Assembly: GCA_022813865.1 (NCBI GenBank)
Contig: JALDZX010000024.1
Location: forward strand, 124,001-188,000
From: Xylographa opegraphella
Lineage: Eukaryota
Direction of reading: 5' to 3'
Length of the DNA: 64,000 bases
Shown here: positions 3,001 to 37,228 of the stretch, piece by piece
How positions within the stretch are numbered: the stretch's first letter is position 1
Layout of the letters: every line of letters begins with the position of its first letter
Translations under genes and position numbers: made by a program
The notes under the pieces: model-generated
What the model was told of the DNA's origin: nothing
The model's input: only the letters and a program-made list of their open reading frames with translations
The model's database searches: none

Positions 3001-3517
3001 CAAGGTCGGCCGCGGACGCTTCCGGTCGGCAGAAAAATTCCGGACGCAAACTCAAGGTATAGATCTCATTGCTTTTCGTAACAACGAAGACATTGAGAAT
3101 GTCCTGATCCGTTGAGTCTGCCAGGGCCACACCACCATGTCGAATGGAACTTGGGAAGGCAATCCGCAATATCAGCCCCGCTTCTCTTTTCTCATGCTCG
3201 TCTTTACTCAGATCCCCAGATCGCAGCTCTAGCACGGAGTTTCCTTCCAGACATCTCCACAGATAAGTTCGTGGATATTTGTGCGACTTCCGGAAATACA
3301 GTGAGCTTGAGCTCGCGATATGCTGGTGTCTATAATCATCTTCTGTTTTGCTGGATGGCAGTGTGTTTAGGATGCGGCGTTGCGGTCGTGTGCTGCGCCC
3401 AAATGCGCTGTTGGATGGGAGCAGTATATGAACTACAGAGTTTTGCTCAATAGGATCAAGATCTATCCGTGTCTCCTTGTGAAGGCCAAGGGATGGCCTG
3501 AGAGGCCTGGACTCCAT
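1..3517 (-). CDS. NUP120: Nucleoporin Nup120/Nup160 family; C-terminus runs off the left edge of the window
   Basis: Long ORF from ATG 3517 with Nup120-like blocks (SSSSLYFRKSHKYPRTYLWR, AVCLNHTLKAWN, GIFKFW). Intron 747-680 (GTAAGC..CTGAC..CAG) shifts the frame to SRPNPTIDY...FYRILYAWRLRGGDFRGAAAVL, which stays open to position 1. Confidence 0.85.
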
Positions 3518-3925
3518 CAGAATTTGCAAAAACCCATGGCGAGCTCATGCCAAGCGCGTCAACAAAAGCCTCGCGAATTTGGAAAGTAGCTCTCAGCCCT
3601 ATATATTTAACAAATGAAGATCAGCCCTACAGCCACGGATTCGTTTTACCTACCAGGGCAACAAGTCACATAGCAGAGGGTATCGTGAAGGTAGAATTTA
3701 CGAACATTTACTAAAACAGAGCACACAGCAGAACCAAGGTCCAAACGCTAGATAGTTTAACCTTCACAGCTCAATAAAGTATCACCACAGCAGCACCATC
3801 ACAAGCCAAAACGAACGCATGATCACAAGGGCCAACCAGATCTTCCCCACCGTACCACTCAACTCCAACCTTCTGCCTCCCAACAGCCACAAACAATCAA
3901 TCAATCTGAGGCCCTATGTCGTAAA

Positions 3926-5249
3926 TCATCTCTTCGCGGCATCACACTCCGCGAGGAAACGGTAGATGCCTTCCACACCTTCATACCCACTCCCCGCACC
4001 CTTCTCTTCCCTGGCAGTTGTCATGCTGGGCACGGAGTCGCCCGAGGTGCTTTCGTAGCCTTCTGCCCATATATTGTGCCCCTCCAGAGATTGATCTTCG
4101 AAGTCATCCGCAGATGTCATTGAACGGGCTGAGAAAGCGGGTGAGTCGATGTGGAACGTAGGCTGTTGTGTTTGAATGGCGGGAGCGAACATGTCGGTGA
4201 TCGATTCGTTATTCAGACAAAGATCGGAAGGGGCGCAGGGGAAAAGTAAAGCCATTCTGACGTCCTTGTCGCCCTTCTGTTCCTCACCGTCGTCGACGAC
4301 CCATCCTTCATCCTCGACCACGTAACCTCGTCGCACCCCGACCTCGTCACAAAGCCCTTCGACTTGTTTTCCGTCACAGCCTGGAAAGCGTACGTTGACC
4401 CACCCGCCTGTCTCCCACTCAATCGGCAAGGCACCATAGGTCGACAAGCGTTGCAGATCAGCAAACACTGCAGCCAAGTCTTGTACGCCACGAGCAAAAT
4501 CTGCGGACAATTCGTCGAGAAGGCCTTCTGCTGTCAGATTTTGTGATTCGGTACTGCCTTTCATGCCAGTAAGGGCGGTGACCGTTGGCGCAACACGGAA
4601 ACGTATACTTGCTCCTCGTGTTGAATTATAGTCGGCTGCTTGGCGCATACGCTTGATGCCCGCATCTTGAGTCGTAGAGACCCTGGCGAAGCGCTTCTCG
4701 CCTGTCTTGAGATCCAAACCCGCGTAATGCGCTCTATGGCCTTCGAGCCAGAACGCCCGAAGTGCGGCCGAGACATTGCTAAGGACTTCGGCGTGGGAAA
4801 TGGGAGTGTGACTGAAGGATCGAACTCCACCCAACGTTGATCGCCCTAGTGTTCCAGTGATACCGGGACGTAGCGGAGAAACAAAGGGAGCATAACGATG
4901 ATGCTGGATAGACCTTGAAATGCGGGATACCGGCAGCGAAGAACGCAGAGGACGAGAGACAGGCTGGGAGGACTTCCGTGAAGCAGCCGTACCATACTGA
5001 CGGAACTGAGAGCGAGCTTGGCGCAGGAGAGCGAGTGGATGAGTGGGATGAGGAGAAGTCCGGATCGGAATCGGCTCGAGAGTCAGGCGCGCGGCCTGTT
5101 GCGAGGGCTTGAAGCGGAAGAGCGAGGTTGCCTTGGCGGCGGCGTATCTGGGAAAATATTAGTGCACAGATGCGACAACGGGTGAAAGGATCTTACTTGA
5201 AGACCTTGATAGCCTTCGGCAACAGGAGATGGCCGCTTGAAGGCGCCAT
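3926..5249 (-). CDS. Conserved fungal hypothetical protein (from recall, family often labelled 'casein kinase II beta 2 subunit'; no CK2-beta motifs seen)
   Basis: ATG 5249, a short first exon, a GTAAG..CTAAT..CAG intron (~5196-5148), then a continuous frame joining ORF 3926-4834 (RSFSHTP, NVRFPGCD, YEGVEGIYRFL). Confidence 0.75.
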
Positions 5250-14334: not shown

Positions 14335-15020
14335 TCCCCCATCCCCTACGCACACGGAACCACAAACACACGACCGTCGCCCTGTACGTACGCATCCCCT
14401 CCCCACGCCNCCCCCCCCCCGTCCCTGAAGCCCCCAAAAACAACCAAATAAACACGAACCAAGCAAAACCAGCCCCACGAGCCGGCTGTGCGCCCGGACA
14501 GCCGAAAAGCCCGCCTTGCGAGATGCTGGGCGCTCTTGGTCGTCGTATGGGCGTCTTTTGTAGAGTTGTGGCATGGCATGAGAGGAGAGGAAGGGTGGCT
14601 GGCTGGCTGGCTGCCTTTCTAAGGTAAAAACGGGGACGGGGTTTTTTTTGGCTGTCTGGACCCGTTCTGCCAACCAGCGAAGTGGCGAAAGTAGATGTAT
14701 TAGATGTAGGTTACTTGTACTGGATAGCTTCTCTCTCTGTCTCTCTTTGATGAAGTAAAGGAAGGCGGTGCTGGTTTTCTGTGCCGTGGGGGTTGATGGT
14801 GAGGGAGGGTTGGATGTATGATGGTTTTGTTGTTGTTATTTTGCTTTCTTGCTTTTTTTTCTTTCTTTCTTGCGTTCCTACCTACCTCACCTCAACTGAT
14901 ACCCCGGTATGAGGTCGCCTCTGAGCGTGTGATATGCTCGCGTGTCGGTGAGGCGGTCTTTCTTCCGGGGGTTTGGTACGGTGCGTGTGTGTGGAGGTGT
15001 GTGGATGGATGTTGGGGACC

Positions 15021-15077
15021 GGGGGGGNNNNNNNNNNNNNNNNNNNNNNNNNNNNNNNNNNNNNNNNNNNNNNNNNN

Positions 15078-31952: not shown

Positions 31953-34355
31953 ATGAGTGGTACCAATGGTATCGCCGGACCTCCAGGTCTATGGAGCGAG
32001 GCTCGTAACGCTGAAGGCCGCGTCTATTATTACAACACACAGACAAAAGCAACTCAATGGACCAAACCAGTAGAGCTCATGAGCGTGGCAGAAGTGAGTC
32101 TTTGAGTTCTCTGCGATGAAGCCAGCTAATTTGTTCTTAGCGTGCTTTACTTGATCAGCCATGGAAAGAATATACTGCCGAAGGGGGACGGAAGTATTGG
32201 TACAATGCGGAGACGAAGTCGAGTTCATGGGAGATGCCAGAAGTCTACAAGAATGCTCTGGCACAGACTCAGCCGCCAAGTCTTCCTGCTGCACCGTATG
32301 AACAATCTTGCACTACGCTTACATTCACTGACATTACGTAGAGCTCAGCAGTTCGTTGCCGGAGGCACAGCGTCATTTTCTTCATATCCTCAGCAGCGAG
32401 ATCGCGACGACTACGGAGAGCGTGCTGGTACGGATCGACAGATAGGTTATGGACAGAACGATACAAATGGATTGCGTGCACCAACGTTTCAGGCTCAGTC
32501 GACCGATCCGGATTATTCGACATTTGAGGAAGGCGAAGCCGCATTCATCAAATTACTACGACGCGCAAATGTACAGCCTGACTGGACATGGGAGCAAACG
32601 ATGCGAGCCACGATCAAAGATCCTCAATACCGAGCTCTAAAGGATCCGAAGGACCGAAAAGCAGCTTTCGAAAAATATGCAGTGGAGGTGCGACTACACG
32701 AAAAAGATCGCGCAAAGGAGAGGCTAGCTAAGCTTCGTGCGGACTTTGGTACTATGCTGAAGAGTCACCCAGAGATCAAGCATTATACCAGGTGGAAGAC
32801 TGCGAGGCCGATTATCGAGCGTGAGACGATTTTCCGATCAACCAACGATGATACCGAGCGGCGTCAGCTTTTCGAAGAGTACATAATTGAGCTTAAGAAA
32901 TCAAATGTCGAGCGTGAGGCTATCACTAGGAAGTCAGCTATGGACGAGCTAGTAAGTATCCTGAAGGGACTGGATCTAGAGCCATATACTAGATGGTCAG
33001 AAGCACATTCGATCATTCAATCACACGAGAGGTTCTCGACAGACGACAAATTCCAAACCCTCAGTAAATCTGATATATTGACTGCTTTTGAAAATCACAT
33101 CAAGTCTCTCGAACGCACTTTCAATGACGAACGCCAGCGAGAGAAGACATCTAAAGCTCGAAAGGAGAGACTGAATAGGGATCGGTTTCTGGATCTCCTT
33201 CAAGAGTTGAAAGTAGCCGGCAAGGTCAAAGCTGGGGCAAAATGGATGAATATTCTTCCTGAGATAGAAAGCGATACCCGTTATACTGCCCTCCTTGGTC
33301 AACCTGGCTCTACTCCCCTTGACCTTTTCTGGGACTTGGTTGAAGACGAAGAGCGCGCTCTTCGTTTGGTGAGAAACGATGTCTACGATGTGCTGGAGGA
33401 CAAACGCTTTGAGATAACTCCCAAATCCACATTGCCCGAATTCTTAGAACTCATGTCTACGGACCGTCGCACAGGCCCCATACCGAAAGATACACTATCA
33501 TTGATATTCGACCGGCTGCTCGAGAAGGTCATGCGCCGCGCTGAAGAAGATAAGCATGCTTCTGAGCGCCATCAACGTCGCCTTATTGATGCTCTACGGT
33601 CCAAGATAAAGCATCTCGACAATCCACCTGTCCACGCTTCCTCATCATGGGACTCCATACGTCCGCAAATCAGTAACCTCGAGGAATACAAAGCTCTAGA
33701 ATCCGATGACCTTCGGCGACAGGCTTTCGACAAAGTTATCCGTCGCCTCAAGGAGAAGGAAGACGACGTCGACAAAGAGCGAGAGAAAGATAGGGGTGCC
33801 AAACGTGACCATCGCGAACGTGATAAGGATCGAGACCGAGAAAGAGACCGTGATATTCGTAACGGGCACTCCGAGCGACGTCGTGAACCTAAAGGGCGTG
33901 CAAGTCGTACACCAGAGCCAGATGCTTACGAAGCCGATCGCCGCAAAGCAATGGCGGACCGTGAGCGCCAATATCGAAAGTCGAGCACTACCGGTTTGTC
34001 TCCGCCAAGGGAAAGAGCGGAGAGGGATCGGCATGAGCGGATCTCGAGCAGGCACGCGGAAGGGAGGTTGGGAGGATATGATCGTGATAGGCGGGACAGA
34101 GAGGAGGAGCGGGAGAGGCTGTATAGGACACGTGGAGACCCAAGAGGAAGCAGAGACGAGTTGGATTATGGAGGTGGAGGTAGGAGAAGGAGAGGTGGAG
34201 ATAGCGACGGCGAGAGCGTGGGAAGCCGGAAGCGGGCAAGGAGGGAAAAAAGCGAGGGATTGAAGCGAAAAAGTCGCACGCCACCACCGCCGGTCAAGGA
34301 GGAGATTGCAGTGCATTCGGGAAGTGAGGAAGGGGAGATGGTGGAGGAGGAGTGA
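31953..34355 (+). CDS. PRP40: U1 snRNP-associated splicing factor Prp40 (two WW domains plus FF repeats)
   Basis: WSEARNAEGRVYYYNTQTKATQWTKP and WKEYTAEGGRKYWYN..SSWEMP; FF repeats; Arg/Asp/Glu-rich tail; two introns. Confidence 0.93.
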
Positions 34356-35037
34356 GATTAAGAGAGTGCGTACGACGATGCTGGTGCAGTGGTGAACGTG
34401 GACGTGTCAAGGGAGTGCTTGAGGTCAGTACAATCATTTTGACCTTGTACAACGCTACTCTAGTCTAGTCCGCGACGGCACCCTGGGCGAAGTGGGTGGA
34501 TTGCTTTTCTGACAGGCGGATGTAGCGGGTTGTGGGTAAACAAAACAGGTACGTGACCATATGATTCGAGGACACTGCGAATTAATAAGTGACTCTCGCC
34601 ATGCACTGCCTACTATACCAGTAGGGATTCTTATTCATAGCCAGTGACGCGGCTTCCGTGCTTCGAATTTGTTCCTCAATATACTATGTAAGCAGTATGT
34701 AGAATAACTTCATCACCAATGCCATAAAGTCATGAAACCCATGAATATGGCTGACGGCAGTCACCTAGCTTAACCCATCAATTGCTTGATCCAACTTATG
34801 TGCAGAAGGCTATGCGAGAGCTCTGAAGAGCTATTCTTTTAGATGCAATGAAATTGACAGGAGGTCAACTGCCGTCGCCTCGGTATATCGTCGTCGTCGT
34901 CCTCATCAGCACGTGTCTCATCATCCGGGAGACCTGCTAGGCGCTTACCAGCGCTTTTACCAACGCCGGTAGATGCTGCAACGCCTGTGTCTAATGCTTG
35001 TCTCTTGTGCAAATGCTTTTCATTAGGGACACCATCT

Positions 35038-37228
35038 TTAGCTATCATCTTCCAAAAAGAACTGCGCAATGAGTTAATGCCTTATATACGGTACATGTAT
35101 ACTTAGTGAAAACTTACGTAATTCCCATTGAGCTTCTGTTCTTGATCTAGTTGACTTTTGTCCTTGTTTATACGTGGTCGGAAGCTGTTAGGATCTCTCC
35201 TGAACGTGACATCAAGGTTTTTGAGGAACTTATTGCATCCAGTCAAAAGACTCTCAGGCTTGTTGGCTCTAGCATCCACCGAAGGTTTGCCATCGAATAC
35301 AATCACTCGATCCGCAAGGTAAGTGGCCATGATGAAATCATGCTCGACAACAAATGCTGTCTTCTTGGCGTGCATGATAAAGCGTTTTATCACACGAGCG
35401 GCGATAATCCGCTGTTCTGAGTCAAGATAGGCGCTGGGCTCGTCGATGAGGTAGACGTCTGCAGGGAGACCTAACGCTAGGACGATTGCAACACGTTGTA
35501 GTTCACCACCTGATAAATTCTGAACCTCTTGGTCAATGAAGTCGTCCAGCTTCAAAGGCTTGTAGACATCGGTCTGAAACTGCGGATTCAAAAAGGATGC
35601 CTTGATTCTTTTGAAGAATAGTTGTCGTACAGTACCAGTAAATTTTGGTGTAATCTTCTGCGGCTTCATTGATACTACTAACGGAGGGATAGACCTGTTT
35701 CCATCGGGCTTCTCCGCGCCAGCTAGCATCCGGATGAATGTAGTCTTACCTGTCCCATTTTCTCCCATCATGACAATAATTTCGGAGTCAGTGAAGTCAC
35801 CTTCTTCGACCTTCAGATGGAATCCTCCTAAAGTCTTCTCCATTGATGGATAATGAAAAGCTCGAGCTTTATCTACCATGAACTCATCGCCTGCTTCGGC
35901 GATACGAAATGTCAACGATTCCTCACGGAAACGGAGATTTTCAGTAGGAATATTCCCATCCAGGAAAATGTTGATACCCTCACGCACGGAGGCAGGCAAG
36001 GTCACCACACCATAAACAGCTGGTCTGCCATAGAGTACACAAATGAAGTCAGAGAGATAGTCAAGCACTGACAGATCGTGCTCAACTACAATCACGTAGT
36101 CATCGGGACGAAGTAAACTGCGGATGATCCGTGCCGCATTAAGACGCTGCTTGACATCAAGGTACGATGAAGGCTCATCAAACATATACCTACTCAGACA
36201 GTCAGGTAACGTTGAAAAGCGGACGAATAGTTTCGTACACATCAGCTTGTTGAACACAAACTATACCGATAGCAAACCTCTGCAATTCTCCTCCCGAGAG
36301 TTTCTCGATGTCTCGGTCAAGGACCTGTTCAAGTTCTGGAATAGATCAGCCACAAACTTAAATATCCTAGAGGGCATAACAACCTAGAACGTCAAGAATT
36401 TGCTGCAAATTATCCATCTGGGAACGTGTAGTAATGAGCGTTTCGACAGTTCGATCAGCTCCCTTAACAGCTTTTGGTATCTGATCAACATATTGAGGTT
36501 TTACAACCGCCTTCAGATCGTCTTCCAGAACTTTTGTAAAGTAATCTAGTTATTGTCAGTCTAGTTCTATATACTGATCCTTCCAGCCTACTCTGTAGTT
36601 CGGAACCCCTGAAATATTTCAAGATTTCTTCCCAGTCTGGCGGGTTATCATATCTGCCAAGATTTGGCTTGAGCTTGCCACTGAGTATCTTCAATGCAGT
36701 ACTCTTCCCAATACCGTTTGTACCAACAAGACCTAGGACTTGACCCGGACGGGGCATAGGAAGCCGATGAAGCTTGAAGCTATTGGCAGAGTATCGATGT
36801 GTGACTTGAGATTCGAGATTCGTTGGCAAGTTTATGATATTGATGGCACTGAATGGGCATTTTTTCACACAGATGCCGCATCCGATACATAGTCGTTCAG
36901 AGATGAAGGCGATCTTCGATTCTGGGGTGACCTCGATACAAAGCTTGCCTGTTCGAACAACGGGGCATGATTTCTTACACTCTTGCCGGCATTTCTACTT
37001 ATTGTAAGACATCGACTTTGGTTCTCAGTCTGTGATTGGCACTTACCTTTGGCTTACACTTCGAGACGTCAAAACATCAGCCTAATCAAAGCATTTTGGA
37101 AGCAGAGTCGCATGTTGGAGCGGTGACTGTACCTTGTCGTTGTTTACAATGGCAATTCTGCGAGGGTTGTCAGTACTTTGATATTTTCATGCATCGAGCC
37201 TAACAGACCGCGTCAACTTGTCTGACAT
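35038..37228 (-). CDS. RLI1: ABCE1/Rli1 ribosome recycling factor (Fe-S domain plus two ABC domains)
   Basis: Spliced [55 protein letters not shown]. Last exon 35061-35038 encodes FFLEDDS*. Confidence 0.98.

Follow-up and report, generated by a model that had tools for sequence, protein, structure and literature searches.

RLI1 and an open reading frame across its stop codon

The window analysed here is a 64,000-nucleotide stretch of DNA from Xylographa opegraphella (contig JALDZX010000024.1, positions 124,001 to 188,000). On its minus strand it carries the gene for Rli1 (ABCE1), the factor that splits ribosomes after termination, and a short open reading frame (ORF) that begins within the last RLI1 codons and continues into the 3' untranslated region (3'UTR), hereafter the trailer ORF. 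The gene and its 3' end are laid out as follows, in window coordinates.

35038..37228, minus strand: RLI1/ABCE1 gene, ATG at 37228-37226, stop TAA at 35040-35038, several introns (from sequence, tblastn and Pfam)
35062..35117, minus strand: last RLI1 intron, 56 nt, phase 0, GTAAGT...TTAAC...CAG (from sequence)
35038..35061, minus strand: last RLI1 exon, FFLEDDS plus TAA, read as TTC TTT TTG GAA GAT GAT AGC TAA

The last intron ends in GCGCAG, and the exon before it closes with ...AAT GGG AAT TAC. The gene was compared by tblastn with the RLI1 model of Xylographa carneopallida in NCBI (P0005, 682 aa), giving 99.3% identity over a 135-residue segment. In that model Pfam finds Fer4_RLI, Fer4 and two copies of ABC_tran, the N-terminal Fe-S domain and two ABC ATPase domains that identify RLI1/ABCE1.

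At 35048, 8 nt before the RLI1 TAA, an ATG in the +1 frame starts a run of 69 codons that is closed by a stop at 34841..34839 (minus strand). The first-pass annotation of this DNA had described the RLI1 ending, the ATG, its frame and the 69-residue peptide, and each agrees exactly with the window sequence. A single frame of this length is expected by chance with p of about 0.04 (our own arithmetic, (61/64)^68), and the window sequence alone is no proof. The ORF rises above chance because it is conserved in relatives, shows coding-type substitutions against a related locus and has gene-like codon usage. These data divide it into the parts below.

34884..35048, minus strand: conserved and very probably coding part of the +1 trailer ORF, codons 1-55, comprising MIAK-DGVP, a variable hydrophilic linker and GVGKSAGKRLAGLPDDETRADEDDDDDI (from conservation in 53 peptides, codon-position pattern and codon usage)
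34884..34967, minus strand: core motif GVGK.AGKR.AGLPD[DE]E..[AS]DEDDDEDD(I), the most strongly conserved part, with synonymous sites kept too (from the alignment and comparison with the related locus)
34839..34883, minus strand: ORF codons 56-69 and stop, without peptide constraint, overlapping the 5' arm of a conserved hairpin (from codon usage and the frames used in relatives)

The trailer peptide is conserved in diverged relatives

A word-based search returned three small ORFs (P0002-P0004) with 65-82% identity to the peptide. A profile built from four sequences then matched 50 cluster representatives at E<=1e-3, 12 of them at <=1e-10, with 1.84 billion searched; all are 34-142 aa long and no pair exceeds 50% identity. 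The first-pass annotation had made its proposal depend on conservation of the peptide, and conservation extends across these 50 diverged clusters.

For the alignment and for all frame counts a set of 53 peptides was used. The aligned peptides follow a common plan, with an N-terminal anchor M-[IRK]-[VA]-[EK]-x-G-[VI]-P, a hydrophilic linker differing in sequence and length from peptide to peptide, and then the motif GVGK.AGKR.AGLPD[DE]EAC.DEDDDEDD(I), in which the G, L, P, E and D columns of the alignment are nearly invariant. Thirteen of the 53 begin farther upstream with residues of the SSSWK/SSFWK type, which are the +1 reading of RLI1 FFLE; these peptides are therefore also located behind RLI1.

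Two longer proteins carry the same tail. In the X. carneopallida model P0005, ...QKLNGNY is joined straight to KMIVEKGVPNEE..., which is the trailer peptide, and a profile search of long proteins found the trailer fused after ...NGNY in the NCBI RLI1 model of Pseudocyphellaria aurata (P0055). Xylographa belongs to Ostropomycetidae and Pseudocyphellaria to Lecanoromycetidae, so that tail-bearing models come from two subclasses of Lecanoromycetes. P0055 is without the N-terminal Fe-S domain.

No family was found for the peptide in Pfam-A at E<=0.1 (four peptides queried), and the ESM Atlas gave no usable match. Against PDB no solved structure was found, the best profile match (E 0.6) being to acidic low-complexity stretches. 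A predicted complex of Rli1 (P0005 residues 1-607) with the peptide scored 0.00 in a run without controls, which speaks neither for nor against binding.

A distant RLI1 locus keeps the same arrangement

A metagenome scan with a 12-sequence subset of the alignment returned a single locus, L001, while a scan with the four-sequence alignment returned no relative. The RLI1 gene of L001 ends ...AAG TAT TTC TTC CTG GAG AAT GAG AGT TGA (YFFLENES plus TGA) and is intronless there. Its trailer ATG likewise lies 8 nt before the RLI1 stop and opens 55 codons, MRVEEGIPK...AGLPNEEACADEDDDEDD.

When 296 RLI1 codons of the window are aligned with L001, the identity at codon positions 1, 2 and 3 is 0.89, 0.94 and 0.40, and the proportion of synonymous differences (pS) is 0.87. 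The synonymous sites are thus saturated; the two species are far apart. The 3' regions nevertheless remain alignable for about 300 nt past the RLI1 stop, ending in ...GGTGAYYGCCGTC (window 34753), with nothing alignable beyond. Within this region perfect nucleotide blocks occur: GCAGGTCTCCC, GTGCTGATGA, ACCTCCTGTCAATT and AATTGATGGGT.AAGCTAGGTGA.

Downstream of RLI1, L001 has an unrelated ORF of 488 aa (3340-4806, minus strand), encoded on the strand opposite to RLI1, whereas the window has an FF-domain PRP40-like gene. Because the downstream neighbours differ, the element belongs to RLI1 and not to a neighbour, and ownership by the convergent neighbour was ruled out.

The convergent gene of the window (32142-34355, plus strand) is formed by an ORF of about 737 aa in which five FF domains and an FF_PRPF40A domain are found. 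It resembles the splicing factor PRP40 and bears a long C-terminal tail rich in Arg, Asp and Glu. Synteny around RLI1 is not kept between the window and L001. In the window, the plus strand under the element is without any ORF of at least 40 aa, and antisense coding was rejected for this reason. The window also contains an assembly gap, with a single N at 14410 and a run of 50 N at 15028-15077.

Coding signature and true end of the peptide

Across the 55 codons shared with L001, identical bases at positions 1, 2 and 3 number 34, 40 and 26, a contrast matched in 212 of 20000 shuffles. Nonsynonymous divergence (dN) is 0.44 and synonymous divergence (dS) 1.22 by NG86, so that the dN/dS check proposed in the first-pass annotation, run against L001, gives a ratio of 0.36. 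The signal is clearest in codons 5-27, which lie past the RLI1 stop and outside every nucleotide-conserved block: here 12, 13 and 4 of 23 bases are identical at the three positions (Fisher p 0.004), and all five codons that keep the same residue differ synonymously. In core codons 28-55 the corresponding values are 19, 25 and 19 of 28.

Codon usage was scored as a log-odds value, with 20 large ORFs of the window (10298 codons) as the training set; the results per codon are as follows.

Whole trailer ORF: 0.122
Codons 1-27: +0.136
Codons 28-55: +0.37
Codons 56-69: -0.399
139 windows taken from large ORFs: mean 0.116 (sd 0.128)
205 other stop-free stretches: mean -0.07

Just 7 of these 205 stop-free stretches score as high as the whole ORF, and all of the other five frames at the ORF score negative.

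The relatives locate the end of the peptide. Past the acidic block the relatives no longer share a frame for the conserved nucleotides: 21 peptides have ..RRQSTSC.., 6 have ..GGLSPV.. and 7 have ..AAVDLL.., one reading for each of the three frames. Another 16 of the 53 ORFs end within five residues after the block, and 3 are unclear. Hydrophobic residues make up a fraction of 0.21 ahead of the block, rising to 0.38 behind it. Because the frame is scrambled and gene-like codon usage is lost after the acidic block, the selected peptide stops there, and codons 56-69 are not constrained as peptide. Conservation of PRRRQSTSCQ and LMGQVR as protein was accordingly rejected, since these are hairpin arms that relatives read in three frames. 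The 69-codon ORF of the first-pass annotation is thus open as it was described, but only codons 1-55 (35048..34884) look coding, and codons 56-69 belong to the hairpin as its 5' arm. Taken over codons 1-55, these sequence comparisons make it highly probable that the trailer ORF is conserved as a coding sequence.

A conserved hairpin follows the coding part

Downstream of the acidic block the window and L001 share a long RNA hairpin.

34753..34876, minus strand: conserved long RNA hairpin, about 125 nt (from the L001 alignment, compensatory pairs and z-scores)
34876-34852, minus strand: hairpin 5' arm GACGGCAGTTGACCTCCTGTCAATT, in the region of codons 57-69
34783-34753, minus strand: hairpin 3' arm AATTGATGGGTTAAGCTAGGTGACTGCCGTC, with a 7-nt bulge (from the arm positions)

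The distal part of the hairpin is variable, and L001 folds alike, with its 3' arm at 2766-2796. Between the two loci there are four compensatory pairs, two of them adjacent in the main stem (A-U/G-C to G-C/A-U) and two distal. On the RLI1 sense strand the folding z-score is -3.65 for the window and -5.79 for L001, compared with -1.22 and -3.17 on the antisense strand. Together with conserved G-U pairs, the sense-strand scores point to a structure of RNA rather than DNA.

The position of the hairpin is held as well. The distance from the trailer ATG to the start of its 3' arm is exactly 265 nt in either locus, despite internal indels. As a post hoc observation, this arm carries stops in all three frames at the same offsets in both species (TGA 268, TAG 281 and TGA 285). 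A ribosome finishing the trailer ORF, in whatever frame, would end at the hairpin base or inside the hairpin.

No Rfam 15 family, including SECIS and ribozymes, matched window 34000-35400 at E<=1. Exact-pattern scans of genome contigs, with the 3' block or with both arms as pattern, gave no match, nor did a scan for the hairpin in viral contigs. Elsewhere in L001 (4000-4066, minus strand) a sub-threshold Hammerhead_II match was recorded, with 21.9 bits against a gathering score of 37 and E 0.5; it is most likely a chance match and unrelated.

A reading that dispenses with the peptide has to be weighed against these data. The roughly 300 nt past the RLI1 stop could be a structured 3'UTR, acting in stability, localisation or 3'-end formation, with the frame an untranslated by-product of T-poor, GA-rich sequence. 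The perfect nucleotide blocks between loci whose RLI1 synonymous sites are saturated are what such an element would produce, as are the compensatory pairs and strong z-scores of the hairpin, and the conservation of the tail (PRRRQSTSCQ, LMGQVR) is demonstrably at the RNA level. The core adds to this: the same residue is kept in 16 of its 28 codons relative to L001, and in 13 of those 16 the codon itself is identical. Since the synonymous sites of the core are kept too, its conservation is partly at the RNA level. An untranslated element, however, does not explain why codons 5-27 are identical at 12/13/4 per position with conserved residues that differ only synonymously, or why codon usage is gene-like in a single frame and only up to codon 55. 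It also leaves unexplained that anchor and motif share one frame in most of the aligned peptides, whatever the length of the linker between them, with the frame scrambled just past the acidic block, and that variation within that block is confined to D and E, which implies third-position changes. On this balance we consider an element acting as RNA only to be unlikely.

RNAalifold also predicts a small hairpin inside the core motif (AGCGC..GUCUC-loop-GAGAC..GUGCU; window 34967-34884, minus strand, and L001 2582-2665). Every pair in it is invariant or changed on one side only between the window and L001, so that it is neither supported nor refuted. It could be a cause of the conserved synonymous sites in the core.

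Proposed access of ribosomes to the trailer ORF

Three routes into the frame had been put forward in the first-pass annotation: reinitiation after termination, alternative acceptors of the last RLI1 intron, and +1 slippage on TTC-TTT-TTG. The last of these does not hold, as the T-run is not conserved: L001 has TTC TTC CTG, and SSSW, not S(S)FW, is the reading in 9 of the 13 peptides that extend upstream. The acceptor sites exist in the window as proposed, with in-phase AAG at 35051-35049 (exon start 35048) and at 35006-35004 (exon start 35003) and a CTAAT at 35026-35022. They are not the conserved route, since L001 keeps the ORF without an intron, and alternative acceptors were ruled out in that role.

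The +1 frame is open across the RLI1 stop in the window, in L001 and in the 13 upstream-extended peptides, and both DNA sequences have AGY followed by the stop. The first four trailer residues, M-[IR]-[VA]-[EK], are the +1 shadow of RLI1 ...[DN][DE]-S-stop (GAT GAT AGC TAA in the window, AAT GAG AGT TGA in L001). A UGGGA sequence is present in the window (AAT GGG AAT), where L001 has CGGGA, and no conserved upstream motif complementary to 18S rRNA was seen, as judged with no 18S sequence at hand. With the splicing and T-run routes not conserved and the ATG a by-product of the RLI1 codons, the remaining access is by ribosomes that have arrived at the RLI1 stop, through reinitiation or a +1 shift. 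The case for entry from the RLI1 stop is, in our judgement of these sequences, evenly poised.

A different source of ribosomes would be needed if the peptide of about 55 aa were the product of an independent small gene, expressed constitutively through a short transcript of its own or through cap-independent entry and unrelated to recycling. The coding signature and the conserved peptide motif fit such a gene equally, the ATG has a purine at -3 in the window and in L001, and by manual reading of the 41 anchor-bearing peptides M stands exactly at the anchor in 29 and within four codons of it in 3 more. The ATG is, however, dictated by the last RLI1 codons and missing in the other 9 of the 41, and the start of the ORF is locked 8 nt from the RLI1 stop in both DNA loci. 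A promoter would moreover be needed within the RLI1 coding sequence, in which the synonymous sites of the last 19 or so codons are no better conserved than elsewhere (8 of 19 identical at the third position, against 0.40 exon-wide). An independent gene is therefore, to our mind, improbable.

It is less probable still that the frame encodes an alternative C-terminus of Rli1, in which splicing to an acceptor farther downstream (exon start 35048 or 35003) would replace FFLEDDS with the acidic tail. The in-phase AAG sites of the window would allow it, and the automated models of X. carneopallida and P. aurata do join ...NGNY to the tail. But L001 has the ORF and no intron at that point, and P0023, P0032, P0034 and P0053 read contiguously from the +1 frame of ...NGN[YF]FFLE and are probably intronless as well. 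The P0005 junction (...NGNY\|KMIVEK) is impossible in the window, where the preceding dinucleotide is GG and not AG. Such an isoform would also lose FFLE, which both DNA loci retain, and from their junctions the two NCBI models appear to be unreviewed predictions. The last exons of P0005 and P0055, which omit FFLE, are probably mis-predicted, and these two public RLI1 models of lichen fungi, which fuse the trailer and drop FFLE, probably need correction. A merely accidental open frame in the 3'UTR, for which the chance expectation of a single 69-codon frame given above is the sole argument, is refuted by the 50 diverged clusters, the coding-type substitutions and the gene-like codon usage, and its probability is negligible.

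Comparison with known systems

Translation past the stop codon is known to increase when Rli1/ABCE1 is limiting. Annibaldis et al. 2020 (PMC7544199) describe ribosomes that stall at stops on ABCE1 knock-down and then resume translation in and out of frame. For Rli1-depleted yeast, a review (PMC5972666) relates from Young et al. 2015 that 80S ribosomes reinitiate in 3'UTRs in all three frames and without scanning, and that review explicitly raises as a question what purpose the 3'UTR peptides made under Rli1/ABCE1 shortage serve. Resumption of this kind, at the stop, in any frame and independent of AUG, would give access to an overlapping +1 ORF such as the trailer. Unlike the genome-wide products, which are regarded as noise, the trailer is a single conserved coding frame on the RLI1 mRNA itself, found class-wide and joined to a conserved hairpin.

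Recoding at the stop codon of a gene's own mRNA offers a second comparison. Bacterial RF2 (prfB) and antizyme are autoregulated by a +1 frameshift. Plant eRF1 is reportedly part of a circuit of readthrough and nonsense-mediated decay (NMD; PMC5397192). As in RF2, antizyme and plant eRF1, a factor acting at stop codons (or a metabolite sensor) would have a recoding site at the stop of its own mRNA that reports the activity of the factor. In those systems the recoded product is the factor itself, or the outcome is a change in NMD, and the signals are defined; in RLI1 the 0-frame product is already complete Rli1. Neither a conserved shift heptamer nor an adjacent stimulator was found for RLI1.

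In viral termination-reinitiation, as with the calicivirus TURBS (termination upstream ribosome-binding site) and the stop/restart sites of fungal hypoviruses and victoriviruses, the downstream start overlaps or nearly adjoins the upstream stop. The AUG N5 UAA/UGA of the window and L001 resembles this arrangement. It differs from the viral cases in that no conserved 18S-complementary motif was seen, the AUG is not universal among the anchor-bearing peptides, the mRNA is cellular and the upstream ORF is 600 codons long.

With regard to the hairpin, yeast RPS28B reportedly has a regulatory 3'UTR hairpin that works with Edc3 (PMC3814365). In bacterial leader-peptide attenuators a short ORF controls, through its translation, whether a hairpin beside it can fold. 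What the RLI1 trailer has in common with these is that the mRNA of a translation component contains a conserved hairpin; no relation in sequence or Rfam family exists. Full-text literature searches turned up no ORF-plus-hairpin unit behind the main ORF of a eukaryotic mRNA.

A candidate sensor of ribosome recycling

The reading that we favour is that lichen-forming ascomycetes (Lecanoromycetes) carry in the RLI1 mRNA a trailer ORF that is entered by ribosomes at the RLI1 stop and that may serve as a recycling sensor. We hold it tentatively as a whole, at a little short of even. The trailer lies about 600 codons into the mRNA, and its ATG is made from RLI1 codons (GAT G) and is missing in some lineages, from which we infer translation by ribosomes located just at the RLI1 stop.

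Several points weigh against this reading. All nucleotide-level substitution tests rest on a single pair, the window and L001, and the sharing of identical core codons between them is partly an RNA-level effect, as set out above. The anchor is in frame with the motif in 41 of the 53 peptides by manual reading, the other 12 beginning within the linker or the motif, but this count is biased towards intact ORFs because only open frames reported by a gene caller are visible; ORFs with the motif only are detectable in peptide searches, yet they are a minority. The trailer ATG is forced by the terminal RLI1 codons, and its presence, being a by-product, is not independent evidence; its absence from 9 of the 41 anchor-bearing peptides counts in the same direction. 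For a +1 shift, no conserved slippery site or shift heptamer was found between the window and L001, a hungry AGY codon was rejected because AGT (12.2 per 1000) and AGC (14.5 per 1000) are not rare, and no stimulatory structure lies beside the RLI1 stop, the hairpin beginning about 165 nt downstream.

If ribosomes do enter at the stop, post-termination ribosomes that have not been recycled would reinitiate, or a +1 shift would take place at ...AGY-stop during a termination stall. Peptide output would then rise when termination or recycling, the job of Rli1 itself, becomes limiting. Ribosomes completing the trailer would run into the base or the 5' arm of the hairpin, and translation of the trailer would open it. 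Were trailer translation to affect in this way what becomes of the RLI1 mRNA, the result would be feedback on RLI1 expression, a sensor role for trailer and hairpin that we regard as doubtful. The acidic peptide may also have a function of its own, and its motif may resemble the acidic C-terminal tails of other proteins such as eIF1A.

The most complete form of the proposal is a sensor resembling an attenuator. A shortage of Rli1 would let unsplit ribosomes continue in the trailer and make the acidic peptide, either free or as a C-terminal extension of Rli1; these ribosomes would unzip the hairpin, change how stable the RLI1 mRNA is or how well it is translated, and so close a feedback loop. 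This form, which joins more steps, appears to us more doubtful again than a feedback role as such. No prior report of such a device turned up in full-text literature searches. If it proved true, the attenuator-like RLI1 sensor would give 3'UTR translation that follows failed recycling its first natural and selected role. A conserved 3'UTR frame locked to the stop codon and followed by a hairpin offers a testable candidate for selected 3'UTR translation and for autoregulation of ABCE1.

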